A stretch of DNA of 64,000 nucleotides from Lysobacterales bacterium (lineage in GTDB: Bacteria > Pseudomonadota > Gammaproteobacteria > Xanthomonadales > Xanthomonadaceae). Below, in pieces: positions 25,807 to 43,105 of this stretch (its first letter is position 1; the number at the start of each line of letters is the position of its first letter). Both the position numbers and the translations under genes were made by a program. The stretch lies in NCBI GenBank assembly GCA_038257155.1, contig JBBSJP010000015.1:31542-95541 (forward strand), read 5' to 3'. The notes under the pieces are model-generated. The model had not been told where the DNA came from. It did no database searches and was given only the letters and a program-made list of their open reading frames with translations.

Positions 25807-27986
25807 CGCGCTGCCCCGAGTGCCTCCAACACCACCGATTCGCTCAGCACCAGCGGCAGTACCAGCGGCTCACCACCACCGGCGGGGTACATCACATAGA
25901 GCGGAACACCCACCGCACCGTGCTCCTGCAGGAATGCCGTGATTGCTGGATCGACATTGGTCCAGTCGCCTTTCATGTAGACCGTTGCGGTGCTGGCAAG
26001 ACCGTCGCGGAACGCGTCGCCTGCCAGCACCCGGCGCTCGTTGGCCTTGCAGGTGACGCACCAGTCGGCGGTCATGTTGACGAACACGGCGCGGCCCTCG
26101 CTGCGCAGCGCCTGCAGGCGATCAGCCGAGTACGCCACACTGCCTTCGGTAACCGTGGCGCTGGGTGTTTCGAGGCGGGTCACCGCCCATAGCGGCAGCA
26201 GGGCCAACAGCAGCAGCGCAACGCCAAGCGCGCGCGACAGCGGACGCGACTGATGGCGCAGGCGCTCCAGCCACCACAGCGCGGCCGCCAGCAGCACCAC
26301 GCCGATCAGCAGCAGGGCAACCGCGTCGACGCCGCGCTGCTTGCCCAGCACCCAGGCCAGCCACACGGCCGTCAGGTACATCGGGAAGGCCATGGCCTGT
26401 TTGAAGCCATCCATCCAGGCGCCGGGGCGCGGCAGCATGCGGGCAAAGGCCGGCACGAAGCCGATCAGCAGGAAGGGCAGGGCCAGGCCGAGGCCCAGCG
26501 CCAGAAACACTGCCAGGGCCAGCGCGGTCGGCGCGGCGAAGGCGAAGGCCAGGGCGGTGCCCATGAAGGGAGCGGTGCAGGGGCTTGCAACCACGACGGC
26601 GAGCACGCCGGTGAAGAAATCGCCAGCCGGGCCGGATTTCTGGGTGAGGTTCTGGCCGAGTCCGGCGACGCCGGCGCCGAGTGTGAATACCCCCGACAGG
26701 GACAGGCCGATTGCCAGCATCACATAGGCCAGCGCCGCAACAAAGATTGGCTGCTGCAGCTGGAAGCCCCAGCCGAGTGCCTCGCCGGCGGCACGCAGAC
26801 CAATCACGGCAAGTCCCACGGCCGCGAATGTCGTCAGCACGCCGGCGGTGTACCAGAGCGCGTGCGAGCGAGCCTTCTCGCGGCTTTCGCCACTCGATGC
26901 CAGTCCCAGTGCCTTGAGCGACAGGATCGGCAGCACGCATGGCATCAGGTTCAGCACCAGCCCGCCGATCAATGCGCCACCCAGCGCGGCAAGCAAGGCC
27001 AGGAAGCCCAAGCTGGACTTGCCAGCATCCATGGGCGAAGTCGGTGGTGTCTCGGGCAGCGCGGTCGCCTCGCCAGCCGGCAGATCTACCGCAACCACGC
27101 GGGTCATCGGGGGATAGCAGACGCCATCCGTCTGGCAGCCCTGGAATGTTGCTTCCAGCATGACGCGCTGGGCGCCACCGTCACGGCGGCCAATCGACAT
27201 CGGCAGTTCAACCTGGTCGAAGTAGACCAACACCTCGCCGAAGTGTTCATCGGCATGGGGCGTGGCTTGCGGCCAGCGCGGTGCGCCCAGCCCTACGCCC
27301 TCACCCTCGATGATGCGGAAGCTGCTGCGGTCCTGATAAAGGTAATAGCCGGGCGCTGGGGTGAAGCGCAGCAGCAGTTCGCTGCTCGACACGGCAATGG
27401 CGTCGAAGGCGAAAGCCTCGTCCTCTGGCAGCGGCAGCGAATCTGTCACCAATGGCCCCGTGCCACCGAGCTGCAGGCCGCTGGACTGCTGCCCCAGCGT
27501 CAGTCCCAGCGGGTTGGACGTCGCGGCTGGTGCAGGCAGTGCCGTGGCAGCAGGCAGCGCCACGCTGATCGTCTGCTTGTGCGGCGGATAGCAAACGCCG
27601 ACATCGGCGCAGCCCTGATAGCGCAGGGTGAAGCTCGCCTCGCGCGCGCCAAGGACCGGGCTGCCGGCAAGCACGGCTTCGACGCTGTCGCGGTAAGTTT
27701 CCACGTCGCCGAAGAATTCGTCGGTGTAGGCCTCTCCCGGCGGCAGCTGCAGCGGGTCGGCCTTGAACTTGCCGTCGGCGCTCTCGGCGCCCATTCGATG
27801 CCGGTAAAGGTAGTAGCCCTCGGCAATCCTGAAATGAAAGACGATGCGCTGGTCCGACTCGGCACGAGCAGTCAGCGCGAAGGCCTGATCGATTGGCAAC
27901 AGGTCATCCGGGTCGACCGCGTGGCTGGGCGAAGCAGCCAGCAAGGCGGTGCAGAACAGCAGGAAGCGCAACAGGGAAGCGGGCAT
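25803..27986 (-). CDS. dsbD: Thiol:disulfide interchange protein DsbD with duplicated N-terminal alpha domain (start 27986, or 28055 overlapping cutA)
   Basis: Two alpha-domain signatures (YQGCADVGVCYPP and FQGCQTDGVCYPP). Central 8-TM beta domain with conserved Cys (NLMPCVLP, SPCTAP). C-terminal thioredoxin-like gamma domain (DWCVTCK). Confidence 0.85.
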   Translation of the reverse strand: MPASLLRFLLFCTALLAASPSHAVDPDDLLPIDQAFALTARAESDQRIVFHFRIAEGYYLYRHRMGAESADGKFKADPLQLPPGEAYTDEFFGDVETYRDSVEAVLAGSPVLGAREASFTLRYQGCADVGVCYPPHKQTISVALPAATALPAPAATSNPLGLTLGQQSSGLQLGGTGPLVTDSLPLPEDEAFAFDAIAVSSSELLLRFTPAPGYYLYQDRSSFRIIEGEGVGLGAPRWPQATPHADEHFGEVLVYFDQVELPMSIGRRDGGAQRVMLEATFQGCQTDGVCYPPMTRVVAVDLPAGEATALPETPPTSPMDAGKSSLGFLALLAALGGALIGGLVLNLMPCVLPILSLKALGLASSGESREKARSHALWYTAGVLTTFAAVGLAVIGLRAAGEALGWGFQLQQPIFVAALAYVMLAIGLSLSGVFTLGAGVAGLGQNLTQKSGPAGDFFTGVLAVVVASPCTAPFMGTALAFAFAAPTALALAVFLALGLGLALPFLLIGFVPAFARMLPRPGAWMDGFKQAMAFPMYLTAVWLAWVLGKQRGVDAVALLLIGVVLLAAALWWLERLRHQSRPLSRALGVALLLLALLPLWAVTRLETPSATVTEGSVAYSADRLQALRSEGRAVFVNMTADWCVTCKANERRVLAGDAFRDGLASTATVYMKGDWTNVDPAITAFLQEHGAVGVPLYVMYPAGGGEPLVLPLVLSESVVLEALGAAR

Positions 27987-28051
27987 GGAAGGGGCGGACG
28001 CAGTACGGAATGGGGTAGAGACAGCAAAGGTGGCAAAGGGTTCGCGCCTGA

Positions 28052-28377
28052 TCATCGGTTTTCCGGTGAGGTCTCGGTTTGAATCCAGGACAGATAGGCT
28101 GGTAGGCCATCGGAGATGTCCACGGCGATGATCTCCGGCACATCAAAGCGGTGCAGCGCCTCAATTCGATCGCGCAGGGCGGCAAAGCGCTGCGCAGTCG
28201 TCTTGATCATCAGCAGGACCTCCGCGGCCTCCTCGATCCGGCCTTGCCAGCGGTACACCGAACGGACCTGCGGCAGCTGGTTCACGCATGCCGCAAGCCG
28301 CTGTTCGACGAGGTCTCGCGCGATGCTGCTGGCGGAGTCTGCATCGGGGCAGCTACAGAACACGATGAGTTCGGACA
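28052..28377 (-). CDS. cutA: Divalent-cation tolerance protein CutA
   Basis: 108 aa, MSELIVFCSCPDADSASSIARDLVEQRLAACVNQLPQVRSVYRWQGRIEEAAEVLLMIKTTAQRF... Lies at the 3' end of a long spurious antisense ORF. cutA-dsbD order is conserved. Confidence 0.8.
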
Positions 28378-28486
28378 TGGTCGCGAGCGAATGGATCGTC
28401 AGAAGGAGGTATTGAAGCCAGCCATGGTACGCGGAACCTGCCGGGCGCTTCTGGCACCATGCAGGCAGTCCACAGACTGCACGCCA

Positions 28487-30997
28487 ATGGAACGTGACCC
28501 AATGGATTCCGCCCTCGCCCTGCTCGCCCTGCCGGCGGATGAGCGCGAAGCGCAACTGGCCGCGCTGCAGCGCGAGGCACCGGAGCGCGCTGCAGAGCTT
28601 CAAGCGCTGATCGATACGCTCAACGCGGCGACGTCTGCGGGTGACAGCCCTTCCATTGCCGCGGCATTCGGCGCACCCGAACGCATCGCGCGCTATCGGA
28701 TATTGGATACGCTGGGCGAAGGCGGCATGGGCACGGTCTACCGGGCGCGGCAGGATCAGCCGGAACGAGACGTCGCGCTCAAGCTGATTCGCGCCGCATC
28801 GGACGACCACGAAGCCCTGACCCGCTTTCGGCTGGAGGCTGAAGCCCTGGCACAGCTCGAGCACCCCGGAATCGCGCGCATCCATGAAGCCGGCACCGCG
28901 CAGATCGGCGCCCGTGAATTGCCTTGGCTGGCGATGGAGTACGTACGTGGCCCCGATCTGCTGGGCTACGCGGCGCAGCACAAGCTCGATCTGAAGGCCC
29001 GGCTCGAGCTGCTGATTGGCCTCGCTCGCGCCGTGCATCACGCACACAGCCGTGGCGTGATCCACCGTGACCTGAAGCCGCAGAACATCCTGGTCGATCC
29101 GCTCGGCCAGCCGAAGGTGCTGGATTTTGGCGTTGCCCGCATCCAGACCAATGCCGCGACCATGACCCGTATCGGTCAGGTCGTCGGCACGCTGGGCTAC
29201 ATGAGCCCGGAGCAATTGAGCGGCAACGCGGCGCAGGCCGACGCGCGCAGCGATGTCTACGCGCTGGGCGTGATCGCCTACCAGCTGCTGAGCGGACGCA
29301 TGCCCTATCCCGACCTGGCGCGCAGTTCGCTGATCGATGCCCTCGACCAGATCCGCCGCAGCGACCCTGAAGCCTTGGGCAAGGTGGATGCCAGCCTGCG
29401 CGGCGATATCGAAACCGTGGTGATGAAGGCGCTTGCTTCCGACCCGGCCAAGCGCTACGACTCGGCCGCCGGCCTGGCGGCGGATATCGAGCGCGTCCTG
29501 CTGCATCGACCGGTGGAAGCCCGGCCACCAACCCCGATGTATCTGCTTGGCCGCTTTGCGCGTCGCCATCGCGTGCTGGTATCGGCCGTCACCCTGGTGG
29601 CAGTGGCGCTGCTGGTCAGCGTGGTGGTCAGTCTGAATTTCGCCTTGTCCGAAGCGGCCGCGCGGCAGGAAGCGGAAGAGCGCCGCCAGCAGGCAGAAGC
29701 GGTATCCGCATTCCTCAGTGGCATGTTCGAGCAGGCCACGCCCGAGAAGGCCTTGGGCCGCGAGTTGGGAGTGCGCGAAGTGTTGGACGAAGCGGCGCGA
29801 GCGGTGAAATCGGGCAGCACGCCAGCGCGGGTGCGGGCAGGCGTGCACCGCGCGCTGGGTGAAAGTTACTACGGCCTGGGCCGCTACCAGGAAGCGGTTG
29901 AGCAGTTGCAGGCTGCTGTCGACGCGCTGCAGGAACTGGCCACGGTCGATGCGGATGAACTCTGGTTGGCGCAGCGTGATTTGAGCAGAACCCTGATTGA
30001 CGCTGGCCAACTGGATGAGGCCGAGGCTTTGCTGGACCAACTGGATTCCCCGGACTGGGCCGCGCCACGGCAGGCCATGCTGCTGGTCAGTCGCGCTCGC
30101 CTGGCGGAGGATCGCGGCGAGCAGACGCTTGCGATAGCGCGCTATCGCGAAGTGCTGACAACGGCTGATCCTGCAACACAGTCCGACCTGATTGCTTCCG
30201 CCCGACTCAATCTCGCCAATTTGTTGAGCGCATCCGGCGCGACCGACGAGGCCGCCGCGCTGCTGCAGTCGCTGTTGCAACAACGGATGGGTGAATTGGG
30301 CGCTGACCACCCGCGCACCCTGTCGGTGCAACATGGTCTGGCACATCTGTTCGATCGCACTGGCAAACGCGACAAGGCCGAGGTGCTCTATGTTGACACC
30401 CTGAGCCGACGCCGCGTCGTGTTGGGCGACCGGCATGGTCAGACCCTGGCCACACTGCAGAGCTATGCTGCCCTGCTCAGCCAGACCGGGCGTGCCGCCG
30501 AGGCCGAGCCGCTGATGCGCGAGGCGGCCGCGGCAATGCGCGAGATTTTCGGAACCCGCGCCGCCGACACGCAGGCGACCCTGGGCGGCCTCGCCAACGT
30601 CTATGAGGAACTGGGCCGGATGGACGACGCCGAGCTGCTGTATCGCGAGATCATCGAAGCGCAGGAAGGTGCCGGCGAGCGTGGAGGGCACGTGGCCATT
30701 GCCCGCAACAACCTCGCCATGTTGCTGATGCAGACGGACCGGCTGGAGGCAGCCTGCGAAGGCTTTGCGCAAGCGGTTGACGAAGCTGATTCCAGTGCTG
30801 GCCCAGACCATCCAATGAGCGCCATCCTGCTTGGCAACCTTGGTGAATGCCTGTCGCGCCAGCGCAAGACGGTCGCCGCACGTGATGCCCTGCAACGGGC
30901 GCACAGCGTGCTGGCGGAACGCCTGGGCGAGGACCACGAACGTACGCGCAAGGTCGAGCGTTTGCTGAGCGAGCTGAGTGCCGCTGGAGGTGGGTAA
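28487..30997 (+). CDS. Hanks-type Ser/Thr protein kinase with TM segment and C-terminal TPR array (paralog 2)
   Basis: Start MERDPMDSAL. Kinase motifs LGEGGMGTVYRA, VALKLI, IHRDLKPQNILV, LDFGVAR, GTLGYMSPEQ. TM segment VLVSAVTLVAVALLVSVVVSL. TPR-rich tail. Confidence 0.85.
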   Translation: MERDPMDSALALLALPADEREAQLAALQREAPERAAELQALIDTLNAATSAGDSPSIAAAFGAPERIARYRILDTLGEGGMGTVYRARQDQPERDVALKLIRAASDDHEALTRFRLEAEALAQLEHPGIARIHEAGTAQIGARELPWLAMEYVRGPDLLGYAAQHKLDLKARLELLIGLARAVHHAHSRGVIHRDLKPQNILVDPLGQPKVLDFGVARIQTNAATMTRIGQVVGTLGYMSPEQLSGNAAQADARSDVYALGVIAYQLLSGRMPYPDLARSSLIDALDQIRRSDPEALGKVDASLRGDIETVVMKALASDPAKRYDSAAGLAADIERVLLHRPVEARPPTPMYLLGRFARRHRVLVSAVTLVAVALLVSVVVSLNFALSEAAARQEAEERRQQAEAVSAFLSGMFEQATPEKALGRELGVREVLDEAARAVKSGSTPARVRAGVHRALGESYYGLGRYQEAVEQLQAAVDALQELATVDADELWLAQRDLSRTLIDAGQLDEAEALLDQLDSPDWAAPRQAMLLVSRARLAEDRGEQTLAIARYREVLTTADPATQSDLIASARLNLANLLSASGATDEAAALLQSLLQQRMGELGADHPRTLSVQHGLAHLFDRTGKRDKAEVLYVDTLSRRRVVLGDRHGQTLATLQSYAALLSQTGRAAEAEPLMREAAAAMREIFGTRAADTQATLGGLANVYEELGRMDDAELLYREIIEAQEGAGERGGHVAIARNNLAMLLMQTDRLEAACEGFAQAVDEADSSAGPDHPMSAILLGNLGECLSRQRKTVAARDALQRAHSVLAERLGEDHERTRKVERLLSELSAAGGG

Positions 30998-31121
30998 TCA
31001 GCGCCGTACTGGAAGCTTCAGCATGCCGGCATGAACTGCGTCTCTGCGCGTACCTGCGTCCGCCCCACGGGTGCAGCAACCTGCCATCGTTTGCCATGGC
31101 ACCAATGAGAGGGGCGACATA

Positions 31122-32252
31122 ATGATCGAGACGAGCATGCCTGCGGATCGGATCCTGCCGCCAGACTGGTTGCCCGCGGCGCTGGTCAGCAGCTGGAATT
31201 TTCTCGCCACATATCCCGTGGCACTGGCCTTGATCGTGTTGTTGATCGGCATCGGCATGGCCGTACTCGGTCGCGTCTTCGTGCTGTACTGGGGTGGCAA
31301 GCTCGCCCGTCGCGCGAACGCGGACCTCGGCCCGCGGCTGCTGCGGATCTGCGCCAACGTAGCGGCCTTGCTGCTGGCCTACTTCGCCATGGTGGTCGCG
31401 ATCCGGATCCTCGGCCTGCCGGAGGGTGTCGAGCGTAATCTGATTCGCGTCCTGCTGAGCCTGTTGATCCTGCGACTGATCGTATCTGCGATGCGCGCCA
31501 GCCACATTGGGCTGGAAATTCTGGGACGCATACGCGACCGATTCAACATCGTCGAGGAGCGCACCATTCCGCTCTTCGATCTGGTCAGCACCCTGCTGAT
31601 CATCGGAGCCGCGGCCTACACCCTGCTGATGGTGTGGAACATCGACCCCACTGCCTGGCTGGCTTCGGCCGGCGTGGTCGGCATCGCGGTGGGTTTTGCC
31701 GCGCGCGACACCCTGGCCAATCTGTTCGCCGGCTTCTTCATCATTGCCGACTCGCCCTACAAGCTCGGCGATTACATCGTGCTCGATTCGGGCGACCGCG
31801 GCGAAGTGACCAAGGTCGGCATTCGCTCCACCCGCTTGCTGACCCGCGACGACGTCGAAATCACGGTGCCGAACGCGGAAATGGCCAATGCCAAGATCTT
31901 CAACGAGTCCGGTGGACGCTGGGTCAAGTTTCGCATCCGGATCAAGGTCGGCGTGGCCTACGGTTCAGACGTAGACGAGGTCGTCGCGCTGCTGGAGCGC
32001 ATCGCTAGTGAGCACGACAACATCTGTCGCGAGCCCGAGCCGCGCGTGCGCATGCGCGGATTTGGCGATTCCAGCCTGGACTTCGAACTGCTGTGCTGGG
32101 TCAATCACCCATCCGAACGCGGCCTGGTGACGCACGAGCTTTACATGCACATCTACAAGGAACTGGGTCGCGCCGGCATCCGAATCCCGTTCCCGCAGCG
32201 CGATGTGTGGATGCGCGATGCCGGTCCCGGAGTGGCGCTGGAACGAGACTGA
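31122..32252 (+). CDS. Small-conductance mechanosensitive channel (MscS family)
   Basis: ATG 31122 with upstream GAGAGGGG RBS. Three TM segments. MscS core (GFAARDTLANLFAGFFIIADSPYKLGDYIVL...GEVTKVGIRSTRLLTRDDVEITVPN). Confidence 0.85.
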   Translation: MIETSMPADRILPPDWLPAALVSSWNFLATYPVALALIVLLIGIGMAVLGRVFVLYWGGKLARRANADLGPRLLRICANVAALLLAYFAMVVAIRILGLPEGVERNLIRVLLSLLILRLIVSAMRASHIGLEILGRIRDRFNIVEERTIPLFDLVSTLLIIGAAAYTLLMVWNIDPTAWLASAGVVGIAVGFAARDTLANLFAGFFIIADSPYKLGDYIVLDSGDRGEVTKVGIRSTRLLTRDDVEITVPNAEMANAKIFNESGGRWVKFRIRIKVGVAYGSDVDEVVALLERIASEHDNICREPEPRVRMRGFGDSSLDFELLCWVNHPSERGLVTHELYMHIYKELGRAGIRIPFPQRDVWMRDAGPGVALERD

Positions 32253-32324: not shown

Positions 32325-35234
32325 TCATTCGAACCCGTCACGCAGGATGTCCTGCGGACCCATCAGCGAGGAAAAGTCGACGGCTACGCGGGTGATGTTG
32401 CCCTGCTGGTCGCGCACTTCGGCCTCGAGCTGTGCTTCTGCAAATCGCGGCAGTGGCTCGGACAAGGCCAAGGTCCAAACGCCTGGCGCGGTTTCCTGCA
32501 ACAGGTCGGCCAGTTCGCTGCCGGGTGCCCGGCCTTCAACTTCGAAGTCGGCGCGCAGCGAGAGCGAGCCGTCTTCGAGGCCGCTGTTGGCATCGGCCGC
32601 GCCGACCCGGATCTCACGCACATGCGTGCGGTTCAGTCCGGGGCGCGGCATGGAAACGGTGAGGGCGGGTCGCAAGTCGTCGAGCAACCAGCCGAACGCG
32701 GCATTGCCGGTGTCGATCGGTGCACCGAGGTCGATCCAGCGCACGAAAAGCAGCTTTTCGTCTTCACTCAGCGGCAGTGCCGGTGGCGGCGGCATCGGGC
32801 TGCCGCTGTAGTCAAGGTCGGCGCTGTTCGGATCGGCACCGAGCGGCAGGGTCGTCGCATCGCCGGGCACGGACTCGGTCGGGTGGTCGGCATTGCTCCA
32901 GCCGTCCAGACGTTCACCGTAGAGCTTCCAGATCAGCAAGGATCGACGGCTCTGGAAGGCGCGCACGTAGCGACTCGTGTTGCTTTGCCGCCAGCTACCG
33001 TTGCTGATAACCGGGGCATGGCCGAAGCGTGCGTCCTGATCGGCGGCGAGCCGGTAATAGTCGCCGGGCAGACCATCGACCTCCGTCAGGTCATTGAGAT
33101 CGAGATTGCCGGCTGCATTCGGACTCTGGTGGCAGCCTGCGCAATGCGTCTGCAGGATGGGTCGGATGTCGCGCAGGAACTCGACGTCGACATGGGAGAC
33201 CGGCTCAATGAGCAGCGCCGGCGCATCGTCCACCCGGGTCAGCAGCGGTGTCAGCTCGGACAGGTCGAAGACCGGATAGTCCGCAGCGGCAGCCGCAGTG
33301 CCTTCGAAAGCCAGCGGCTGCTGGCTGTGCGCGTGGCAGCCGCCGCAATCCACGCGCATTTCGCCGGGCCGAACCTGATGCCAGGTCTGCGCCATGTTCA
33401 GCAGCATGCCGCGGCGGTCGAGGGTTTGGAAGGTAAAGGGCGTATCGGCCGGAATCTTTGCCAGGAAACTGGTGTCCGGGTTGCCTTCGCCATCCAGCAG
33501 CGGGCCGCCGCCCTGCGCAGTCTTGCGCAAGGGGATTTCACCCAGCACGCGCAGGCGTTCGTTGGCATGGTTGTAGAACTGGCGGCCCTCATTGGGCCCG
33601 TAGCTGCGATGCGTGTTGGGCTCCATGGCGAGCAGGCGCACCGCCCAGATATCGGCATTGGAATAGGAGCCGGCATCGGAACCTTGCACGAACCAGTTGC
33701 TCGATTGGCCATTTTCGCTGGTATTGAAGGCGTCCAGCCCGTCGAAGGTGTTGGCCCAGCTGGTCACATGGCCGGGAAAACTCTCACGCTTGTAAAAGCT
33801 CGACGCACCGACCAGTCCGAAGGGCGTTCCGGCCGGCAGCTCGGCGTGCAGGCTGCCGTCATTGGGCAGCCAGGGCAATGCATCCGGTTCGGCCACGCCA
33901 TGGATGGCCGAATACGGCACCACGGCACGCGGCCAGGCCTCGTTGAAGCCGGGATCGTTCTTGATCAGCACCAGCTCTTGTGGGCTGTTGACGGTCTCAC
34001 CGTCGGCAATCAGGTACAGACCGGCGTCGTAGTAGGGCAGGGTGGTTGGACGGTTCAGGTCGTTGGCCGGTCCGGGAGTCCATACCACCAGCAGGTCGTT
34101 GCCCGGCGCAGCGGAAGGATGGGTGAACTTGCCGACCCGTACGCCGCCCGCACCGACTGGCGCCGCCTCGTCGTCACCATGGGTGAAGGGGGTGATCGAG
34201 CGCATGTCGCGCGGCTGGAACGGCATGGTGAAGTCATAGCGAAAGCCAGCACCAACGGTGCGGGCGATCGGCGGTGCGTCGGAGGCGAAAGCATCATGGA
34301 ACGGCGGTGGGCCCGGCGGCGGTGAAGGCGGCAGCCGATAGAGCGCGCCGAAGCCGTTGTTGTTCAAGTTGTAGTAGTCGACCACGACGATGTCGCCATC
34401 GCCAAGCTGGGTCATGAAGTGGAACGACTGCGGCTCGCGGAAGGCGCTGATCAAGGGATTCCAGTTGCGCCCGTCCGGCCAGATCGTCCAGATGCCCCAC
34501 AGGCGTCGGTCGCGCAGACCCTGGCTCTCGTGCGTGCTGAACATCAGCCGTCCATCGCGCAGCACGGTCGGATGCAGGGCGCTGGAGATGCTCATCGGCG
34601 CGATCGGCGTCAGGTTGCCGCCGTCCTCGTCCATCACGAAGATTTGCAGCGTGGGGTGCGTGAAGCCCTTGGGCGGCACGAAAGCGTTGCGGTTGCTGGT
34701 AAACGCGATCCTGCCGTCCGGCAGGGGCATCGGCCCAAGGTTGAGGATGCCGTAGCCAAGCCGGTTGTAGCCGGCGGGCGGGTCGAGCGGATTGGACTCG
34801 TCCCAGTTTCCCGCCCCGGTATTGGGGGTGAACTCACCATGGGTGAGGCGCTCGACACTGCGCGTGGCCAGATGGATGCGGTAGATGTCGGCCCCGGCAT
34901 AGGGAAGATCGCGCTGCGAGTTGATCGCCTCGGGCCGCATGTCGGGGAAATAACTGTAGTAGACCCACTGCGCGTCGAATGACAGCACCGGATCAGTCAC
35001 GCTGCCATTGCCACCGGCGACCAGCACTTCCTCGCTGCCGTCCGGGTGCAGCAGCATCAGATCCGCACCGGGATCGATACGTGCTGGATGGAATACTTCA
35101 GGCCATGTCGTGTTGATCTGGTCGCCGTAGCGAGGCTGGCGAACGTAGACAATGTCGTAGGGGAGCGCAGCCTGCACGGCGCTGCTGGCGAGCGCAGCAA
35201 GCAGAACGGCCAGGCGCAGCGAGAATGAACTCAT
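32325..35234 (-). CDS. Large secreted beta-propeller-like protein with two CXXCH c-type heme-binding motifs
   Basis: Start MSSFSLRLAVLLAALASSAVQA (signal peptide). ~969 aa. Two CXXCH motifs (DCGGCHAHS and THCAGCHQSP). Confidence 0.7.
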   Translation of the reverse strand: MSSFSLRLAVLLAALASSAVQAALPYDIVYVRQPRYGDQINTTWPEVFHPARIDPGADLMLLHPDGSEEVLVAGGNGSVTDPVLSFDAQWVYYSYFPDMRPEAINSQRDLPYAGADIYRIHLATRSVERLTHGEFTPNTGAGNWDESNPLDPPAGYNRLGYGILNLGPMPLPDGRIAFTSNRNAFVPPKGFTHPTLQIFVMDEDGGNLTPIAPMSISSALHPTVLRDGRLMFSTHESQGLRDRRLWGIWTIWPDGRNWNPLISAFREPQSFHFMTQLGDGDIVVVDYYNLNNNGFGALYRLPPSPPPGPPPFHDAFASDAPPIARTVGAGFRYDFTMPFQPRDMRSITPFTHGDDEAAPVGAGGVRVGKFTHPSAAPGNDLLVVWTPGPANDLNRPTTLPYYDAGLYLIADGETVNSPQELVLIKNDPGFNEAWPRAVVPYSAIHGVAEPDALPWLPNDGSLHAELPAGTPFGLVGASSFYKRESFPGHVTSWANTFDGLDAFNTSENGQSSNWFVQGSDAGSYSNADIWAVRLLAMEPNTHRSYGPNEGRQFYNHANERLRVLGEIPLRKTAQGGGPLLDGEGNPDTSFLAKIPADTPFTFQTLDRRGMLLNMAQTWHQVRPGEMRVDCGGCHAHSQQPLAFEGTAAAAADYPVFDLSELTPLLTRVDDAPALLIEPVSHVDVEFLRDIRPILQTHCAGCHQSPNAAGNLDLNDLTEVDGLPGDYYRLAADQDARFGHAPVISNGSWRQSNTSRYVRAFQSRRSLLIWKLYGERLDGWSNADHPTESVPGDATTLPLGADPNSADLDYSGSPMPPPPALPLSEDEKLLFVRWIDLGAPIDTGNAAFGWLLDDLRPALTVSMPRPGLNRTHVREIRVGAADANSGLEDGSLSLRADFEVEGRAPGSELADLLQETAPGVWTLALSEPLPRFAEAQLEAEVRDQQGNITRVAVDFSSLMGPQDILRDGFE

Positions 35235-35476
35235 GCGGATTCCTACCGGTTGAGCGGCGGACTGCTGCCGCCATGGCCCCTGATTGACCCCGCCGATCAT
35301 AGTCCTGTCCCGCTGCCGGGTGGAGGCGAGGCAGTCCAGTCCACGCAGCGTCGGAACTTGCCGACCCTCGACTCGGGCACGAGCGACCAGCGGCGCGCCA
35401 AGGTGAACCGAAGACCGGAACCAAGCCCGTTGCGGTGCGTTTGTCTGCGTCCCCGATCTACTTTCGGATCGACGGA

Positions 35477-35646
35477 CCCTAGGAGCCTGCGCGGCGGAAG
35501 CAATCGAGGCGAAAGCGAGACTGCGCGAGAGCGGAGTTTCGACGATTCGCCGGCCTGTAGTGGTTCTACAGGCCAAGAATCGGCGGAATTCCGGGCCGCG
35601 CAGGCGCGGTTGCAGCCCGGTTGTCTTCTGCCGCGCAGGCTCCTAG
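35477..35646. other. Structured GC-rich element in the 5' leader of the beta-propeller gene (long-range inverted repeat plus internal hairpin)
   Basis: CCTAGGAGCCTGCGCGGCGG (35477-35496) is complementary to CCGCGCAGGCTCCTAGG (35630-35646). Internal hairpin GCCTGTAGTGGTTCTACAGGC at ~35552-35574. Confidence 0.4.
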
Positions 35647-36824
35647 GTCCCTGCAGGCTTGGCCGCCAGCCACTGCAGCACGCTTGGGGGCAGGCTCGAC
35701 TCCTGCTGGCTTCCGCTGCCATCCACTTTTTCTGTAGACCCGCTGCGCGCTGCCAGCAGGCGCGTGGCGCGCAGGCCCAATTCATGTCGACTGGGGTCGG
35801 AGCCGCGCATCACGAAAATCAGCGCGCCCTGCGCAAGGGGCCTGATGGCGTATGCGTCGAGCAATTCTGCCTCGGCGCTCGTCGCCTGAACTGACGCCGT
35901 CGCCACCTCGCTCTGTGCATCCCAGGCTGGCGCCAGCAAGCCATCCTCGGCCAGTCCCTCAGCCTGCCCCACCGCACGCATCAGGTACGTGGCGACCCCG
36001 ACGCGCTCGGCATACGCCAGCGGCGCAAGGCTTAAAGCGGGCGCTGCGCGATAACGCACCTCGACGAACCACGCATCCGGGTCAGCGAGATCGACATCGC
36101 GGTGAACTGCCCAGCCAAGGGTTTCGTCGTCCAGGCTCACTTCGCGCAGACGAGCCACGATCAGCAAGGAACTCTTGGTGGCGAAACGGAATTCGCCCGG
36201 CAGCGCCAGGGTCGCGCCGCCGGAACCCAGCTCGATCTTGCCAAGACGGTAGGAAAGCCGGCTGGCAACCACATCCAGACTGGGAGCTTCAGGCTCGCGT
36301 TCTACCACGGGCACGCTGCGTTCGGGTTCGCGCGACGAGGTGCCGGGTGCGGAGGGCGCCGGCATGGCGCGACGAGCTGGTGGCGCAGTACTCACCCGAG
36401 GGGTTACGGGCACCTGCGGATCAGCACCCTCGGAATCGTCATACCCGGCGTCGTCGTATTCTTCCTCGTCGTAGTCTTCGTACTGCTGACCCTCGCGCGC
36501 CGCCATGATCTTGTCGGCCATTTCGGGATTGTCGCGGCGGATGCGTTCGATGTCGGCTTCAGTCATGTAGGGCGCCTGATCGAGAATGAACTGCTCGACC
36601 GCCTGATTGCCGCTGTGGAACGCCAGCGCGCCGACGATCACTGCCAGGACAAAGGGCAGGCGGATGTCGGAGGCAGGGTCGCCCCAGTGCTTGATTACCG
36701 CAATCAGCGCCGCGGGCCAGAAAAGGAACACCAGGATGGCCAGGCCGCCGCTGGCGCGCGCGGTCTTGACCGTCATCCACAGGATCAGGCCAAACAGGAT
36801 CAGCCACCAGAACGTTGCGGACAT
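35643..36824 (-). CDS. Hypothetical membrane protein (3 N-terminal TM helices, acidic linker, C-terminal globular domain)
   Basis: ATG 36824 preceded by an AGGAGT RBS. MSATFWWLILFGLILW... TM segments. DE-rich linker QYEDYDEEEYDDAGYDDSEG. Confidence 0.6.
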   Translation of the reverse strand: MSATFWWLILFGLILWMTVKTARASGGLAILVFLFWPAALIAVIKHWGDPASDIRLPFVLAVIVGALAFHSGNQAVEQFILDQAPYMTEADIERIRRDNPEMADKIMAAREGQQYEDYDEEEYDDAGYDDSEGADPQVPVTPRVSTAPPARRAMPAPSAPGTSSREPERSVPVVEREPEAPSLDVVASRLSYRLGKIELGSGGATLALPGEFRFATKSSLLIVARLREVSLDDETLGWAVHRDVDLADPDAWFVEVRYRAAPALSLAPLAYAERVGVATYLMRAVGQAEGLAEDGLLAPAWDAQSEVATASVQATSAEAELLDAYAIRPLAQGALIFVMRGSDPSRHELGLRATRLLAARSGSTEKVDGSGSQQESSLPPSVLQWLAAKPAGT

Positions 36825-36828
36825 GCCA

Positions 36829-37176
36829 TTACTCCTGGCTGATGTGCTGGATCTGCGACGGGCCAAGGCGCAGCCGCGCGTAGCCGCTCGGCAGGATCAC
36901 CCGCAGGGTGAGCGAGCGCGCATCGGCACGTTCCACACGGCCGCGTCGCGAGCGGCCATCCGACATGACCACCCGCACGTCTTGGCCCTGCATGGTGGAC
37001 AGTTGCGCAAACTCGACGCGTCGCGATGTGCCATTGCCGGGCGCGCGCGTGGCAAGGCGTTTGTTGTCGGCGACGTAGCGCGAGATCCAGCGCTCGTCCT
37101 CTTCAACGCTGGCCTTGCTTTCGGCCGGGCTCAACAGGGCTGCTGCGACAAACAAGGCCGCAATGAGTCGATACAT
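36829..37176 (-). CDS. Small secreted hypothetical protein
   Basis: Internal ATG gives MYRLIAALFVAAALLSPAESKA signal peptide. 115 aa. Directly upstream of and co-oriented with the membrane protein gene. Confidence 0.5.
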   Translation of the reverse strand: MYRLIAALFVAAALLSPAESKASVEEDERWISRYVADNKRLATRAPGNGTSRRVEFAQLSTMQGQDVRVVMSDGRSRRGRVERADARSLTLRVILPSGYARLRLGPSQIQHISQE

Positions 37177-37339: not shown

Positions 37340-40300
37340 CTACTTCGCCGCCGGCTTGCGCGGCGCGGGCGTCCCGCCGGCCTTGTCGCGTAGTCCGCTG
37401 ATCAGCAGGTCGAGGCGCGTGGCGATGGTGGTGAGCAGCTTCTGCTGCTCGCCGCGGCCCTCGTTGCGCGCGCGGATTTCGTCAACCAGCGGGCGGAAGC
37501 CAACCTCCAGGGCTGAGCGCAGGCCGCCCAGCCACATTGCACTTTCAGTTGCGGTATCGCGCGAGAAGGTGCGCGCCAGGGCCTGCTCGCTCGCGATGCG
37601 CTGCAGCAGGTCGATCAGGGCGGGCCAATGTTCGCTGTTTGCGGCGACGTCGTCGGCGCTGGCGGGCTCGGCGCCGCGCTGGGTGCTGGCATCGGCCAGC
37701 TCGCGCAGGGCCTGGGCAAGCAGGTCGAGGCGCGCGACGACATGCTGGCCGGTTTCGGCCTGCGCGCCCTGCGCCGCACCGAGGGACGACAGGCCTCGCA
37801 CGCCCTCGACCAGGTCATGCAACTGCCCGACCACACGCACGCCGACGTCGCTGTCGGCGCCGCCCATCGATTTGTTGCGGCGGTAGTCGCGCAGGATCTG
37901 CTCCCAACGCGCCTTTTCCACATCGGTCTGGCGGCCGAGCAGTTCGGCCAGCTTGAGCAGGTTCTCTTCGGCGCCGGCGGTGAGCAACTGGGCCTCGCCC
38001 TGGTAGTGGTCGCGCAGCACCTGCTCGATGTCGGCATCGTTCATCGCCGGCGAGAGCTTCTCGGCCAGCTTGTTCATGTTGCGGTAGCTGCCCTGCAGGC
38101 GGAACGGCGGCTCGGTGCGGTAGTCGTCGTCCTGCGCCGCCGAGGCGATGTACTGCTGGTTGACCCGGAACACCGTGTCGCGCACCTGCATCAATCGCCG
38201 CAGCACGGCCTCGATCTCGCCGATCTCGGCGGCGCTGTAGGTGTGTGCCAGTTCGTTGGCGGAAAACGCCTTGCCCTCGGCCTTGGCGATCAGCTTGTAG
38301 ACATCGCTCATCTGGCGCGTGGCCAGCGGCGCCAGGATCGGATTGGAGGTGAGGCAGATCTCCACGTAGCTCATCGCGAAGGCCTCCTGCATGCCGCCCA
38401 GCACGTCGCCCAGGTTGTAGACGTCGGCGCGGTTGGCCAGCATGTCGGGAATCTTGAAGACCTCGCCGGACTCGGTGTAGGGGTTGCCCGCCATCACCAC
38501 GCAGAACTTCTTGCCGCGCAGGTCGAAGGTGCGGGTCTTGCCCTGCCAGACGCCCTCGATGCGGCGGGTGCCGTCGCACAGCGAGATGAATTTCTGCAGG
38601 AATTCCGGATGGGTGTGCTGGATGTCGTCGACATACAGCATGGTGTTGTTGCCCATCGCCAGCGCGAGATTGAGTTTTTCCAGCTCGCGCGCGGCGGTGG
38701 CATCGGGCGCCTGTGCCGGGTCGAGCGAATGCACCGCATGGCCCAGGGCCGGGCCATTGATCTTCATGAAGTTCAGGCCCATGCGATGCGCCACGTACTC
38801 CATCAACGTGGTCTTGCCGTAGCCGGGCGGCGAGATCAGCAGCAGCAGGCCCATCAGGTCGCTGCGCTTGCCTTCGCCGACCGTGCCCATCTGCTTGGCA
38901 AGGTTGTCGCCGATGATCGGCAGGTAGACCTCGCTGATCAGCCGGTTGCGCACGAAGGCGGTCAGCGGCTTTGGCTTGAATTCGCCCAGGCGCATCGATT
39001 CGCGCTCGCGCTCCAGGCGCGCGTGGCGCTGCGCGTGGTACTGCTTGAGGCCCGGCAGGAAGGCGTGGCGGTGATGCTCGAAGCGCGCCTCGAAGTCGTC
39101 CAGCGCTAGCGCCAGGCGGCCGTCCTGGATGCGCGCATGCACACCGAGCAGGCCGGCGACTTCGGTGCGCAGGTCGGCCTGCGCAATTCGATTCGGCAGG
39201 CTCTCGCCGAGCAGCAGCAAGGCGGCGGCCTCGTTGCGGTAGTCGCGCAGCGCGCCGAGCTCAGTATCGCCAAGCAGGGCGTCGAGCCAGCCCAGCAGCA
39301 GGTTCCAGCGCGCGTCCAGGCGACCATCTAGGCGCTTCAGGGTGTCCTGCAGTTCGTGCCAGGCATGCGCGGTTTCCAGGCGCTCGCGCAAGGCCTTGGC
39401 AAGCTGGGCGGCGTATTTGCTGAAGTGGAACTGCACATGCTCGGCAGCCAGTTCGTGCTGCAGATAGTCGGCTGCGCGCTTGAGGTGCACGCCGTCCAGC
39501 GGCAGTCCGCGCTCAAGGGCAAAAGCTTCCAAGGCCTGCGCGAGTTCATTGCGCAGCGCCAGACCGCCACCGCCATGACCGAACAGCTCGCGCATGCGGC
39601 GCGCGGCGCGTGCGCGTTCGGGCCAGGTCGCGGACTGCTTGTGCGAGTTGATCAGCTCGGACCAGCCGAGCAGGGCGAGGGCGCGGTCATCGGGTGCATA
39701 GCGCAATGAACCGGCCTGCGCACGCAGCGGCAGCAGCGCAGACAGGATCAGGCTGGCGTCGTGGTCGTGGATGCCCTTCTCGTAGCCCTCGCGATAGCGC
39801 GCGGAAGCGAAATCGCGCAGGCGCTGCTGCAGGCCATCGGGCTGCAGCGCGAGGCGTTCCAGCTCGCTCATGCTCCAGCCATCGCTGCCGGCTTCGGCCG
39901 CCTCCAGCACGCAGCCCGCAAGGTACTCGCCGCGATACAGCGTGGCCGATTCGGATTCCAGATCGACCGCCCAGTAATCGCGTGCCGCGTCCAGTTCCGG
40001 ATCGTGCAGGGCCTGCAGGTAATCGGTGCCGGTGAGGTGCAGGTAGAGCCCGTCCTCACGCGGCATCAGGGTGAGGTCGAGCTCCTGGCGATTGACGCTG
40101 AAGCGGTGCCGACCGAAGCGCAGGGTTTCGCCGCCGGCGTCGAACAGTTCACTGCGGTCGCGCAGCGCGCGCAGGGCCTGGTCACGCGCCGCCTTGAGGC
40201 GCGATTCGACATCGTCGGCTTTGACGTTGTCCTTCAGGCCGCGCAGGCGCTCGGCCAGATCGCGCAGCTTGAGCACCAGCGGATCGCCGGCGAAGAAGGC

Positions 40301-42736
40301 GTTGAGCTGGTCCTGGTCGGTGAGTCGCTCGCTGCGCCGCGGCAGGCCTTCCAGGATGCGGATGGCGGCATCGTGCACGCCCTGCGCCTTGCGCTGGCGT
40401 TCGTCGAGCAGCGCCTGGCGCTGGCCCTCGAAGGCTTCCAGCACTTCCTCGCGCTTGGCCAGGATGTCGCCGAGGAACTGCTCGTGCTCGCCGAACTGGC
40501 TTTCCAGTTCTTCCAGTTGCACCAGCACGCGCGCCAGTTGTTCCTCGCAGGCTTCCGGCTCGCGTGCCTGCGACAGGGCGCTGGCGACACTCTGGCCAAA
40601 CAGCTGGAACTGCGCGCCGAACTGCGCCACGGCCTCCGATGAGCCGAGTGATTTGCGTCGTTGCTCGGCGCGCGCGCGGGCCTGGTTGAGGCGGGCATAC
40701 AGTGCCGAGATCGCCTCGACCACGCGGGTGCGTTCGGCCGCGTCTTCGACCGGCAGGCTGCCCATCAGGTTCGACAGCATGTCGAGATCGGAGCCCAGGT
40801 CAGCCAGGCCCTTGAGCGGCTCGCGCAGCTGACCACCGCTGCTGGCGGCCTGCGCCTTCGTATCCAGCGCAGTCAAACGGTCGCCGAGCGGTGTCAGCGC
40901 GGCGGGACTGGCGACGAAGCTGCCAGTGGCCTGGCCGGTGCGCTGCTGCGCCTCGAGCAACTCGGCCTCCATCGCGTCGATGGCGGCCACGTCGATGTAG
41001 CGGAAGTCGCGGATCGTCAGCAGGCGGCCGCGCAACGCGGCGATGCCGTTCAGCGCGTCGACGTAATCCTGCACCTTGTCCCAGCGCTCGGGCTGCAGCG
41101 ACTTCAGCAGTGCAGCCTGCTGCGTGCGCGCTTCAGTCAGGGCCTGCTCGGACTGACGCCGGATGCTGACGACTTTCTCGTACTCGTCGAGCACCTGTTC
41201 GCTGGTCGCGGCGATCTCGCGCACCAGGCTGGCGGCGCCCTGGCAGTTGCTGTCGTCGACCCAGTGGTGCAGGTCGAACAGGCGACGGGTCTCGGCCACC
41301 AGGCGCTCGAAGCGCTGCGCCGAGATGTCGGTCGATTCGATTTCGCGCGCCACGCCGAGCAGGTCGGACAGGCCGCGTACCAGTTCGGCATTGCCGATCT
41401 TGCCCATGAAGCTGGTGCGCGGCGGCTGGCGCGCGGCGAACTCTTCGGTGGTGAAGGGCGTTTGCCAGATCTGCATCGGATGCACGCGCGTGGCTTCGGC
41501 GCTCTCGGCGCTGAACACCACCATGCGGCCGTCCTCCATCATGGCGTAGCCATGCGCGAAGATCGGCGTCTGCAGGCGACGCTGGATCAGGTTGTAGGTG
41601 AACAGCGCGAAGCGGCCTTCCTCGGGCTCGTAGAACACGTACAGCACGTCTTCGCCATTCGGCGAACGCAGCACGCGCTTGAAACCCATGCCGTCCATCG
41701 AGCGTTCGAAGCGGCGGTACTCGCCGTTCTGCAGCACATAACCGCCGGGGAACACGATGCCGTGGTCTTCCGGCAACTGGATGCAGGCCGCGCCGATGGC
41801 ATCAATGCGCAACACGCTTTGCGTGATGCGGTTGTAGACCAGGTAGCGCCAGACCTCTTCGCGATAGGGCAGCACCCGCAGCAGGATGAGGCTGCCGACC
41901 TGGGCGAACTCGACGATCGCGTCGTCGAGCGACTGGGTCTTGTCGGCAACTGGCTCGCGGTACACGCCGAGGCCGTCTTCGGTGTTGTTCTCGACCTTGA
42001 CGGTGAGGTCGCCGGCAACGGTCTCGACGAACACGGTGTCGAGGATGTTCAGATGCGGGTGGCGGCCGTGCACCGCGTGCTCGCGCGTGCAGCGTGTCCA
42101 CTCGAAGTCATAGGCCGGCGGCGGCGCGATGTCGCGTTCGCCGCGGTTGTCGATGTAGCGGATCTGGCTGCCGTCGGACGAGACGTTCCAGCGAAACACG
42201 CGCACATCGGTCAGGCGCTCGCCGATCTGGAAGCTGGCCAGCAGCTTGCCCTGCCGCACCACCAGCTGCAGCAGGCGGGTGTGCTTGTAATAGGCGTACA
42301 GCTCGCGGAAATCGTTGCGGAAATCGGGCGCATCGAGAAAGCTGCCCGCGACCGGCACTGGCTCGCCTTCGAAGCCCTCGCCCTCCTCTTTCAGGCGATA
42401 GAGCGAGAACACATCCTCGACAACGGTTTCCTTCTTCAGCCCGATGAAGACGTTGTAGCCGAACAGCAGCAGATGCCCGACCTGCACGATATCGCGCGCC
42501 GCACAGTTGTTCTCGGTGCGCACCCGCAGCCGCCCGGCGACAGCCATCTCGCTGCTGCCGAACTCGGCCAGGCGCTGGGTGTTGAGCGCATCGACCACAC
42601 CCGCAAGCCGCGAGCCCTGTTCAACCAGGCGCTTGTGCAGCACTTCGTAAGCGCCACCTTCGGTGACGGCGCGGTCGACATTGCTGGTATCGGGGGTGGG
42701 GTTGGTCATGGGGCGAGTTTCAAACGTGTGAGACAT
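37340..42736 (-). CDS. Giant (1798 aa) protein with a single central AAA+-like P-loop ATPase module and extensive helical regions
   Basis: Uninterrupted 5.4-kb ORF. Walker A LISPPGYGKTTLMEYV, Walker B-like MLYVDDIQH, sensor-like VVMAGNP. Long helical Glu/Arg/Leu-rich stretches. No signal peptide. Confidence 0.85.
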   Translation of the reverse strand: MSHTFETRPMTNPTPDTSNVDRAVTEGGAYEVLHKRLVEQGSRLAGVVDALNTQRLAEFGSSEMAVAGRLRVRTENNCAARDIVQVGHLLLFGYNVFIGLKKETVVEDVFSLYRLKEEGEGFEGEPVPVAGSFLDAPDFRNDFRELYAYYKHTRLLQLVVRQGKLLASFQIGERLTDVRVFRWNVSSDGSQIRYIDNRGERDIAPPPAYDFEWTRCTREHAVHGRHPHLNILDTVFVETVAGDLTVKVENNTEDGLGVYREPVADKTQSLDDAIVEFAQVGSLILLRVLPYREEVWRYLVYNRITQSVLRIDAIGAACIQLPEDHGIVFPGGYVLQNGEYRRFERSMDGMGFKRVLRSPNGEDVLYVFYEPEEGRFALFTYNLIQRRLQTPIFAHGYAMMEDGRMVVFSAESAEATRVHPMQIWQTPFTTEEFAARQPPRTSFMGKIGNAELVRGLSDLLGVAREIESTDISAQRFERLVAETRRLFDLHHWVDDSNCQGAASLVREIAATSEQVLDEYEKVVSIRRQSEQALTEARTQQAALLKSLQPERWDKVQDYVDALNGIAALRGRLLTIRDFRYIDVAAIDAMEAELLEAQQRTGQATGSFVASPAALTPLGDRLTALDTKAQAASSGGQLREPLKGLADLGSDLDMLSNLMGSLPVEDAAERTRVVEAISALYARLNQARARAEQRRKSLGSSEAVAQFGAQFQLFGQSVASALSQAREPEACEEQLARVLVQLEELESQFGEHEQFLGDILAKREEVLEAFEGQRQALLDERQRKAQGVHDAAIRILEGLPRRSERLTDQDQLNAFFAGDPLVLKLRDLAERLRGLKDNVKADDVESRLKAARDQALRALRDRSELFDAGGETLRFGRHRFSVNRQELDLTLMPREDGLYLHLTGTDYLQALHDPELDAARDYWAVDLESESATLYRGEYLAGCVLEAAEAGSDGWSMSELERLALQPDGLQQRLRDFASARYREGYEKGIHDHDASLILSALLPLRAQAGSLRYAPDDRALALLGWSELINSHKQSATWPERARAARRMRELFGHGGGGLALRNELAQALEAFALERGLPLDGVHLKRAADYLQHELAAEHVQFHFSKYAAQLAKALRERLETAHAWHELQDTLKRLDGRLDARWNLLLGWLDALLGDTELGALRDYRNEAAALLLLGESLPNRIAQADLRTEVAGLLGVHARIQDGRLALALDDFEARFEHHRHAFLPGLKQYHAQRHARLERERESMRLGEFKPKPLTAFVRNRLISEVYLPIIGDNLAKQMGTVGEGKRSDLMGLLLLISPPGYGKTTLMEYVAHRMGLNFMKINGPALGHAVHSLDPAQAPDATAARELEKLNLALAMGNNTMLYVDDIQHTHPEFLQKFISLCDGTRRIEGVWQGKTRTFDLRGKKFCVVMAGNPYTESGEVFKIPDMLANRADVYNLGDVLGGMQEAFAMSYVEICLTSNPILAPLATRQMSDVYKLIAKAEGKAFSANELAHTYSAAEIGEIEAVLRRLMQVRDTVFRVNQQYIASAAQDDDYRTEPPFRLQGSYRNMNKLAEKLSPAMNDADIEQVLRDHYQGEAQLLTAGAEENLLKLAELLGRQTDVEKARWEQILRDYRRNKSMGGADSDVGVRVVGQLHDLVEGVRGLSSLGAAQGAQAETGQHVVARLDLLAQALRELADASTQRGAEPASADDVAANSEHWPALIDLLQRIASEQALARTFSRDTATESAMWLGGLRSALEVGFRPLVDEIRARNEGRGEQQKLLTTIATRLDLLISGLRDKAGGTPAPRKPAAK

Positions 42737-42880: not shown

Positions 42881-43051
42881 CCGTTCGTGGTGAGGAGCGA
42901 TCGAGGCATCCGCGCAGCGGATGACCGAGAGCGCGTCTCGAACCACATGCTGGATGGTTCGAGACGCCACCTCGTTCGGCCGCCAACGCGGCTGCGAGGC
43001 GCTGCGCGCCTTCGCGCTGCGCGCGCCTCGATGGCTCCTCACCACGAACGG
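42881..43051. repeat. Nested inverted-repeat element (MITE/REP-like) between flotillin and giant ATPase genes
   Basis: 26-bp terminal IR CCGTTCGTGGTGAGGAGCGATCGAGG (42881-42906) versus its complement at 43026-43051 (25/26 match). Inner palindrome GCGTCTCGAACCA...TGGTTCGAGACGC at ~42932-42969. Confidence 0.65.
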
Positions 43052-43105
43052 TTTATGGGGGAGGCTCATGGCAGCAGTTCAAGCAATCAAGAACCCAGCG
43101 CTCGC

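Follow-up and report, generated by a model that had tools for sequence, protein, structure and literature searches.

An exported dihaem protein related to HzsA, the alpha subunit of hydrazine synthase (HZS), is encoded on the minus strand (32325..35234) of a 64,000-nucleotide stretch of contig JBBSJP010000015.1 from a Lysobacterales bacterium. This whole stretch is referred to below as the window. The protein is a distant stand-alone relative of HzsA. It is not a hydrazine synthase and is no sign of anammox. The best reading of the evidence, held with slightly more confidence than doubt, is that of a self-contained redox enzyme of the periplasm, in which one haem is catalytic and the other transfers electrons. 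The family is catalogued (PF18582, UniRef name) but uncharacterised, and the protein described here is a new member of it.

Domain architecture and relation to HzsA

An AlphaFold2 model was built from a 30-sequence alignment and had a predicted local distance difference test score (pLDDT) of 66 and a predicted template modelling score (pTM) of 0.68. Domain boundaries were set on the secondary structure of this model and on the regions matched by Pfam and by HzsA. The gene and its parts are as follows.

32325..35234, minus strand: coding sequence of the HzsA-related dihaem cytochrome, 969 amino acids and stop codon (open reading frame list, translation)
35241..35244, minus strand: AGGA, likely ribosome-binding site 6 nucleotides before the ATG (read from the sequence)
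35166..35234, minus strand: Sec-type signal peptide, residues 1-23, predicted cleavage after VQA (sequence)
33792..35165, minus strand: six-bladed TolB/PD40-like beta-propeller, residues 24-481, with conserved H221, H272, Y287 and Y288
33555..33791, minus strand: linker or insert, residues 482-560, mean identity 80%, pLDDT 23-50
33195..33554, minus strand: HZS_alpha middle domain, residues 561-680, assigned to haem 1, PF18582 at residues 586-634
33327..33347, minus strand: haem 1 motif CGGCH with invariant His636 (CGGCHAH, residues 630-636), family signature (translation)
32685..33194, minus strand: class-I-like C-terminal cytochrome c domain, residues 681-850, assigned to haem 2, aligned to the haem alphaII domain of HzsA
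33129..33143, minus strand: haem 2 motif CAGCH, residues 698-702 (translation)
32787..32795, minus strand: Met814-Pro-Pro, with Met814 the likely sixth ligand of haem 2, His/Met (translation)
32328..32684, minus strand: C-terminal all-beta (Ig-like) domain, residues 851-969, AlphaFold2 strands at residues 857-955 with pLDDT of about 80-93

A sequence-only reading made earlier had described a secreted, propeller-like protein of about 970 amino acids with two CXXCH motifs. The length (969 residues), the signal peptide, the six-bladed propeller and both motifs were confirmed. The spacing of the motifs had been put at about 100 residues and is actually 68; the first motif begins at 65% of the protein length. 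The stop codon is located at 32325..32327, and the mechanical open reading frame reaches a TTG at 35576. The ATG at 35234 is the credible start, in preference to this TTG, given the AGGA 6 nucleotides upstream, the signal peptide at the start of the product and the starts of the homologues. The N-terminus reads MSSFSLRLAVLLAALASSAVQA|A, where the bar marks the predicted cleavage. Neither a twin-arginine motif nor a lipobox was found on inspection of the signal peptide. A signal peptide was present at the equivalent place, just before the conserved 'YDIVYVRQPR', in all 120 close homologues. This N-terminal segment is hydrophobic in every homologue, yet its mean identity to the query is only 23%. 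On the evidence of these sequences the protein is exported, with a signal of the Sec type.

The HZS_alpha family of Pfam (PF18582) was matched at residues 586-634 with an E value of 6.5e-12 and 46.3 bits, against a gathering threshold of 26.6. Among all PDB sequences the sole match was HzsA of Kuenenia stuttgartiensis (kuste2861, 5C2V_A), with E values of 2.5e-11 for the single sequence and 9e-14 for the family profile. Two aligned stretches placed both CXXCH motifs on the haem alphaI and haem alphaII motifs of HzsA. The middle domain was aligned with HzsA chain residues 511-576 and the cytochrome c domain with residues 643-728 and 749-768. Flanking residues (D..S, TW..RP, S-LL-W) and the final 'L..DE....WIDLGA' helix were also aligned. 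In a Foldseek search with the model, 5C2V_A was again the top match (E 1.4e-23, 945 columns, template modelling score 0.58 normalised to HzsA, 16% identity), and TolB propellers were next in the ranking. Homology to HzsA is therefore shown, with the sequence supporting the two haem domains and the structure supporting the propeller and the overall layout. A propeller, a haem-containing middle domain and a C-terminal cytochrome c domain follow each other in the same order in both proteins.

The likeness to HzsA suggested by the sequence-only reading was thus borne out by profile and structure, and the predicted structure also confirmed the propeller. The alternative label of 'quinoprotein-like' had to be abandoned: the propeller is TolB/PD40-like, and propellers of pyrroloquinoline quinone enzymes ranked far below TolB in the structural comparison. 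In the profile search that had been proposed, HZS_alpha was above threshold. Matches of Cytochrome_CBB3 and PSCyt1 to the cytochrome c domain were weak and below threshold; for PSCyt1 (PF07635) against the C-terminal haem domain 12.4 bits were obtained, with a threshold of 22 and an E value of 0.26. The motif order CxxCH ... MPP ... L..E...WI..GA resembles that of PSCyt1, and is regarded as a lead only. No Pfam match was found for the Ig-like domain at residues 851-969.

The propeller is also shared with TolB, a six-bladed PD40 propeller with 16% identity to the protein. TolB lacks haem domains, the protein lacks the N-terminal domain of TolB, and no tol or pal genes were found near the gene in the window. 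The Tahibacter orthologue is named 'TolB family protein' at NCBI, a name that reflects the fold only.

Several features separate the protein from HzsA, to which it is only about 16% identical. The NCBIfam equivalog NF052339 gave 71 bits (E 5.1e-20), covering partial stretches only, against a cut-off of 800. Tyr591, the haem alphaI ligand of HzsA located four residues past the CXXCH histidine, is replaced by Gln638 in a gap-free HMMER alignment (CSGCHYGSY in HzsA, CGGCHAHSQ in the protein). Two residues after the haem histidine the protein has an invariant histidine where HzsA has glycine. HzsA has a zinc site formed by His587 and the propeller residue Cys303, whereas the protein has no cysteine for the role of Cys303. 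The missing Cys303 is a weak discriminator, since it is also missing in Scalinduaceae (PMC12758564). A weak profile alignment of query residues 216-243 to HzsA chain residues 223-250 would bring Cys303 to a position just a few residues from the conserved H272, which is a lead only. Haem alphaII of HzsA is bis-His, with His772 as distal ligand, and haem 2 is probably ligated by Met814 instead. The stretch before the aligned 'L..DE...WIDLGA' helix could not be aligned to HzsA, and Met814, within MPP, is the only invariant candidate there. The protein has an extra C-terminal Ig-like domain of about 115 residues that HzsA lacks. It carries a Sec signal peptide and stands alone, without beta or gamma partners, and its nearest relatives belong to heterotroph lineages (Lysobacterales) and not to an anammoxosome-bearing planctomycete. 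The NF052339 score, Gln638, the lack of a further cysteine, the probable His/Met ligation of haem 2, the absence of HzsB and HzsC nearby and the Lysobacterales relatives together lead to the conclusion that the protein is not a hydrazine synthase.

Haem motifs, conservation and proposed activity

The protein contains four cysteines, all within the two CXXCH motifs. The first motif lies in DCGGCHAH (residues 629-636), with CGGCH at residues 630-634 (33333..33347). The haem 1 residues C630, C633, H634 and H636 were found in 120 of 120 close homologues and in each of 96 divergent representatives. The haem 2 motif was kept in 119 of the 120 close homologues, the exception being P0084 with a CX3CH variant (CTGACH), and in about 85 of the 96 representatives. 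It is missing from several shorter representatives (about 830-950 amino acids) of the wider superfamily. Clades II and III of the HzsA homologues likewise lack haem 2 (PMC12758564). Both haem sites are under selection and more than chance occurrences, as they are kept in homologues and aligned with the two haem motifs of HzsA. The sequence-only reading had made its case depend on conservation of the CXXCH motifs in orthologues, and the motifs were kept.

The cytochrome c domain has a single methionine, M814, which is invariant in alignment A1. All 120 close homologues have MPP, and the M814 column was methionine in 38 of 51 non-gap representatives. Since M814 is the only methionine of the domain and invariant within MPP, haem 2 is probably ligated by His702 and Met814, instead of being bis-His. 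Haem 1 is probably held by the canonical His634, as judged from the alignment of HzsA Tyr591 to Gln638 and from the lack of a cysteine for a zinc site. Q638 is at least 90% conserved in alignment A1. Cysteines at alignment positions 169 (propeller) and 838 (cytochrome c domain) were seen in many homologues and were considered as a disulphide pair. This was rejected: both cysteines occur together in 34 of 120 homologues only, and neither is present in the protein.

Mean identity to the query was 77% for the propeller, 80% for the linker, 71% for the middle domain, 69% for the cytochrome c domain and 51% for the C-terminal beta domain, which is the least conserved domain; across phyla the mean identity was 66%. 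The propeller and linker are more conserved than the haem domains. No segment of the protein is more conserved than the linker at residues 482-560. AlphaFold2 nevertheless models it poorly, and it may pack against a cofactor absent from the model or fold around a partner surface. S589, C630, C633, H634 and H636 were present in all 96 divergent representatives, and D587 and W618 in 95. H272, Y287, Y288, E559, D587, T617, W618, E625, S765, W833, D852 and P856 were conserved in at least 93% of these representatives, H221 in 88% and H619 in 85%. Both the propeller and the middle domain contain polar residues that are still conserved at about 35% identity. The protein also carries the signature CxGCHxH with flanking D-x-S and TW, which was derived here and is not curated. 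The pattern of conservation favours an enzyme.

In the proposed enzyme, two c-type haems would be attached in the periplasm by the cytochrome c maturation system of the host. Haem 1 would occupy the place of haem alphaI in HzsA, with the middle domain on one side and the propeller on the other, and would probably be the catalytic site. This assignment is suggested by the HzsA counterpart, a five-coordinate haem proposed as an active site (PMC12607021), and by the polar residues conserved down to about 35% identity. Candidates for lining the haem 1 pocket are H221, H272, Y287 and Y288 from the propeller and E559, D587, S589, T617, W618, H619 and E625 from the middle domain. Haem 2, with probable His702/Met814 ligation, would have a potential above that of the bis-His haem alphaII of HzsA, for which -330 mV is reported (PMC12607021). 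Its redox partners would be the periplasmic cytochromes at large, and for this reason no partner gene would be needed nearby. The substrate would most likely be a small diffusible oxidant or reductant, which is speculative. Hydroxylamine or nitric oxide (NO)-type nitrogen species, from descent of the HzsA fold, and peroxide, from analogy to dihaem peroxidases, are candidates, each of low confidence.

Known proteins offer analogies to such an arrangement. In the dihaem cytochrome c peroxidase/MauG group a His/Met electron-transfer haem serves a catalytic c-type haem, and the general cytochrome c pool is used. These proteins are not homologous to the protein and have a different fold; PF03150 (CCP_MauG) gave no match to the separate domains even at E values up to 10. 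Cytochrome cd1 nitrite reductase and the quinohaemoprotein dehydrogenases, again by analogy only, combine a periplasmic beta-propeller with a cytochrome c.

Several points weigh against the enzyme as proposed. The AlphaFold2 model is of moderate quality (pLDDT 66), with haem loops below 50. The invariant His636 is unexplained by a canonical haem 1, and would allow a non-canonical arrangement like the zinc site of HzsA. The modules fused to relatives are limited to surface modules (Ig, fn3, TSP3, FG-GAP) and give no clue to the chemistry. Haem alphaII of HzsA is reported to lie too far from the other haems for efficient electron transfer (PMC12607021), and if the haem geometry of the protein is HzsA-like, the proposed relay from haem 2 to haem 1 fails.

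The strongest competitor of the redox enzyme is a periplasmic protein without catalytic activity, either an electron carrier or a structural protein, whose propeller would provide a platform for binding and whose haems would do no more than shuttle electrons. The best propeller matches, TolB, are binding modules rather than enzymes, adhesion-type modules are found on relatives, and no catalytic family was matched. Against such a role stand the conserved polar His, Tyr, Glu, Asp and Ser residues of the propeller and middle domain and the invariant CxGCHxH, kept down to about 35% identity, and the homologous haem of HzsA, which has five-coordinate iron and has been proposed as an active site (PMC12607021). 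A carrier of 970 residues without a conserved partner gene is also hard to justify. A carrier or scaffold is accordingly considered unlikely.

Distribution of the family and genomic context

The sequence-only reading had called such fusions rare, which is wrong. At least 568 loci in species-representative genomes encode a relative, and a word-indexed protein search gave 2942 clusters at 90% identity. In an exhaustive search 2617 clusters at 50% identity were found with E values up to 1e-3, and 527 with E values up to 1e-30. The best 120 of the 2942 clusters were full-length, at least 66% identical and all with precomputed PF18582. Full-length orthologues were 58-85% identical over about 950 residues. 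One protein in the public collection, P0001, was 100% identical to the protein of the window. P0041 from Dokdonella, named 'HzsA-related protein' in UniRef, was 72% identical over 97% of the query.

The best 80 of the at least 568 loci had 58-84% identity. They include Lysobacterales (Pseudomarimonas, Dokdonella, Tahibacter, Chiayiivirga), Marinicella and Arenicella, and also Thermoanaerobaculia and other Acidobacteriota, Binatia, Verrucomicrobiota, Myxococcota, Planctomycetia and Anaerolineae. Among the matches listed, the closest orthologues were from Pseudomarimonas (84-85%), a Lysobacter metagenome-assembled genome, Chiayiivirga and Dokdonella. Acidobacterial copies were 67-70% identical to the protein, and the copies of the gammaproteobacteria Marinicella and Arenicella 61-62%. 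As identity does not track taxonomy, the comparison suggests that the gene, besides being under strong constraint, has been transferred horizontally. The G+C content of the window is 62-68%. Two full-length copies (L014 and L056) were found on different contigs of the Thermoanaerobaculia metagenome-assembled genome CAMYOG01, which indicates paralogy within the orthogroup.

Relatives are fused to Ig, fn3, He_PIG, TSP3 or FG-GAP modules, with Ig, fn3, TSP3 or He_PIG at the position of the C-terminal domain; P0176, for example, has FG-GAP_3 fused at its C-terminus. No catalytic partner domain was found in the fusions of the relatives examined. P0133, a JGI metagenome protein of 1567 amino acids, combines in one open reading frame an extracytoplasmic function (ECF) sigma factor (Sigma70_r2, r4_2), a transmembrane segment, an N-domain of about 270 residues and a full HzsA-related module. 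The fusion is a sigma factor tethered to the membrane and bearing a haem-protein ectodomain, or else a read-through in gene calling. The N-domain of P0133 is present without the sigma factor in P0136.

The neighbours of the gene were surveyed with open reading frames of at least 110 amino acids at 82 loci, 10 kb to each side, and all-against-all clustering. Besides the gene itself and shadow open reading frames, no family recurred in more than nine of the 82 loci, and an operon partner was rejected on this result. No homologue of HzsB, HzsC or a fused beta-gamma protein was found in the window or within 10 kb at the 82 loci. The annotated contexts of Tahibacter, Pseudomarimonas and two other genomes all differ. 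No other credible CXXCH gene was found among window open reading frames of at least 150 amino acids. From the lack of a conserved neighbour, the differing contexts and the lack of a second CXXCH gene it is concluded that the gene is a stand-alone unit without an HzsB or HzsC partner nearby. The surrounding genes of the window are as follows.

15489..18812, plus strand: second Ser/Thr kinase with a long TPR region, paralogue of the kinase at 28151..30997 and less than 13 kb from it
20244..21509, minus strand: FG-GAP_2 repeat protein, 11 kb from the gene
25803..28055, minus strand: DsbD, two matched stretches of the DsbD_N domain
28151..30997, plus strand: Ser/Thr kinase with TPR repeats, 1.3 kb downstream of the gene
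31071..32252, plus strand: MscS, convergent with the gene
35643..36866, minus strand: unannotated membrane protein, 407 amino acids, 408 nucleotides upstream of the gene, no Pfam match
37340..42736, minus strand: DUF3686 ATPase, 1798 amino acids (DUF3686 E 9.5e-202, DUF7902, AAA/AAA_5)

These contexts bear on a second competitor, a haem-based periplasmic sensor in which haem 1 would bind a gas or redox signal and relay it to a signalling partner in the membrane, for example a Ser/Thr kinase, or an ECF sigma factor with its anti-sigma factor. The fusion in P0133, an ECF sigma and Ser/Thr kinase operon divergently adjacent to the homologue at locus L083, and the TPR-containing kinase downstream in the window would fit. 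The protein itself has neither a transmembrane segment nor an output domain. Within 10 kb, kinase genes were present at 7 and ECF sigma genes at 5 of the 82 loci, with no clear enrichment near the gene. With two such kinases in the window, they appear to be common paralogues here; the neighbouring one is convergent, with the MscS gene between. An identity of 60-85% over about 950 residues across phyla is also unusual for a sensor. Of the two roles that the sequence-only reading had offered, redox enzyme or haem sensor, the enzyme is favoured and the sensor is considered improbable.

Another proposal keeps the enzyme and adds a history. The orthogroup would be a widespread single-gene haem enzyme of heterotrophs, with hydroxylamine/NO-type chemistry that forms or cleaves N-O or N-N bonds, an activity ancestral to the hydrazine-forming subunit of anammox, and haem 1 might pair with a second metal. 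The metal would be held by His634-x-His636 and by H221 and H272 of the propeller, a site that would echo the His587/Cys303 zinc site beside the haem in HzsA. We regard this as a long shot.

A true hydrazine synthase alpha subunit, with cryptic anammox-type N-N bond formation in a non-planctomycete, is extremely improbable: the three-domain architecture and both haem motifs are common to HzsA, and HzsA-like genes outside Brocadiales, in ten phyla, have been read as anammox potential (PMC11828985), but the equivalog score, the 16% identity, the replaced Tyr591, the missing Cys303 equivalent, the probable His/Met haem 2, the lack of beta or gamma homologues at all loci surveyed and the hosts, Lysobacterales and other heterotroph lineages, speak against it, and the same negative conclusion was reached for other homologues (PMC12758564).

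The non-anammox homologues of clades I-IV (Hagglund et al. 2025, PMC12758564), from Aquisphaera, Thermogutta, Novipirellula, Syntrophobacter and Opitutus, are the closest comparison in the literature. Like the protein, they are HZS_alpha proteins without Tyr591 and Cys303 and with a predicted canonical haem pocket. They are defined by a co-located fused beta-gamma homologue (propeller and peroxidase-like), often with FG-GAP/CRTAC1, which the orthogroup described here lacks. They have a two-residue gap at Ser590/Tyr591, where the protein was aligned ungapped by HMMER. Their alpha homologues were described as few and from obligate anaerobes (PMC12758564), whereas this orthogroup is abundant and is found in isolates of Dokdonella, Tahibacter and Marinicella. 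In clades I-II, FG-GAP/CRTAC1 genes lie between the alpha and beta-gamma homologues (PMC12758564). The FG-GAP_2 gene of the window belongs to a different FG-GAP family and its proximity is probably a coincidence.

The use of HzsA-like genes as anammox markers in metagenomes is disputed between PMC11828985 and PMC12758564, which calls for caution in surveys of the nitrogen cycle. The protein is a clear case of an HZS_alpha protein not to be read as anammox, as it stands alone, lacks the HZS-specific residues and has its closest relatives in Lysobacterales. The sequence-only reading was right that such proteins are uncharacterised outside anammox. Homologues without key HZS residues have been judged not to be hydrazine synthases and were assigned no function (PMC12758564), and a broader enzyme family with alternative substrates has been proposed (PMC10732223). 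A stand-alone, highly conserved orthogroup is not described in PMC10732223, PMC12758564 or PMC11828985, none of which assigns a function. The orthogroup is large, present in many phyla, unusually conserved and represented in cultured Pseudomarimonas, Dokdonella, Tahibacter and Marinicella. Its size, conservation and cultured hosts offer a practical route to the chemistry of the HzsA fold before hydrazine synthase. If an activity were found, a function would be given to thousands of 'hypothetical' exported haem proteins.

Upstream region and other neighbouring genes

A perfect 9-bp hairpin, GGCCTGTAG-AACCA-CTACAGGCC, is located at 35552..35574 on the minus strand, within the 408-nucleotide gap and 3' of the upstream gene. 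Besides being visible in the sequence, it appeared when the intergenic RNA was folded (z = -2.9). The hairpin could be the terminator of the upstream gene, in which case the dihaem cytochrome gene would be its own transcription unit. The evidence for this is weak, as a T tract is lacking and the terminator scan did not call the hairpin. In the region upstream of the gene, the scan called neither a sigma-70-like promoter nor a terminator, and no Rfam family, riboswitch or conserved motif was recognised. The region was not conserved against the three closest orthologous loci.

The membrane protein encoded at 35643..36866 has N-terminal transmembrane segments and a very acidic low-complexity stretch, EDYDEEEYDDAGYDDSEG. 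Its gene was not conserved beside the family in other genomes. DsbD is generically relevant to cytochrome c maturation and showed no link to the family in other loci. The label of DUF3686 is 'ATPase involved in DNA repair'. Large open reading frames without Pfam match are found past the DUF3686 gene at 43106..45064 (minus strand) and 42921..44132 (plus strand), and together with this gene could form an uncharacterised ATPase system. The AccB and AccC genes are located further away in the window.

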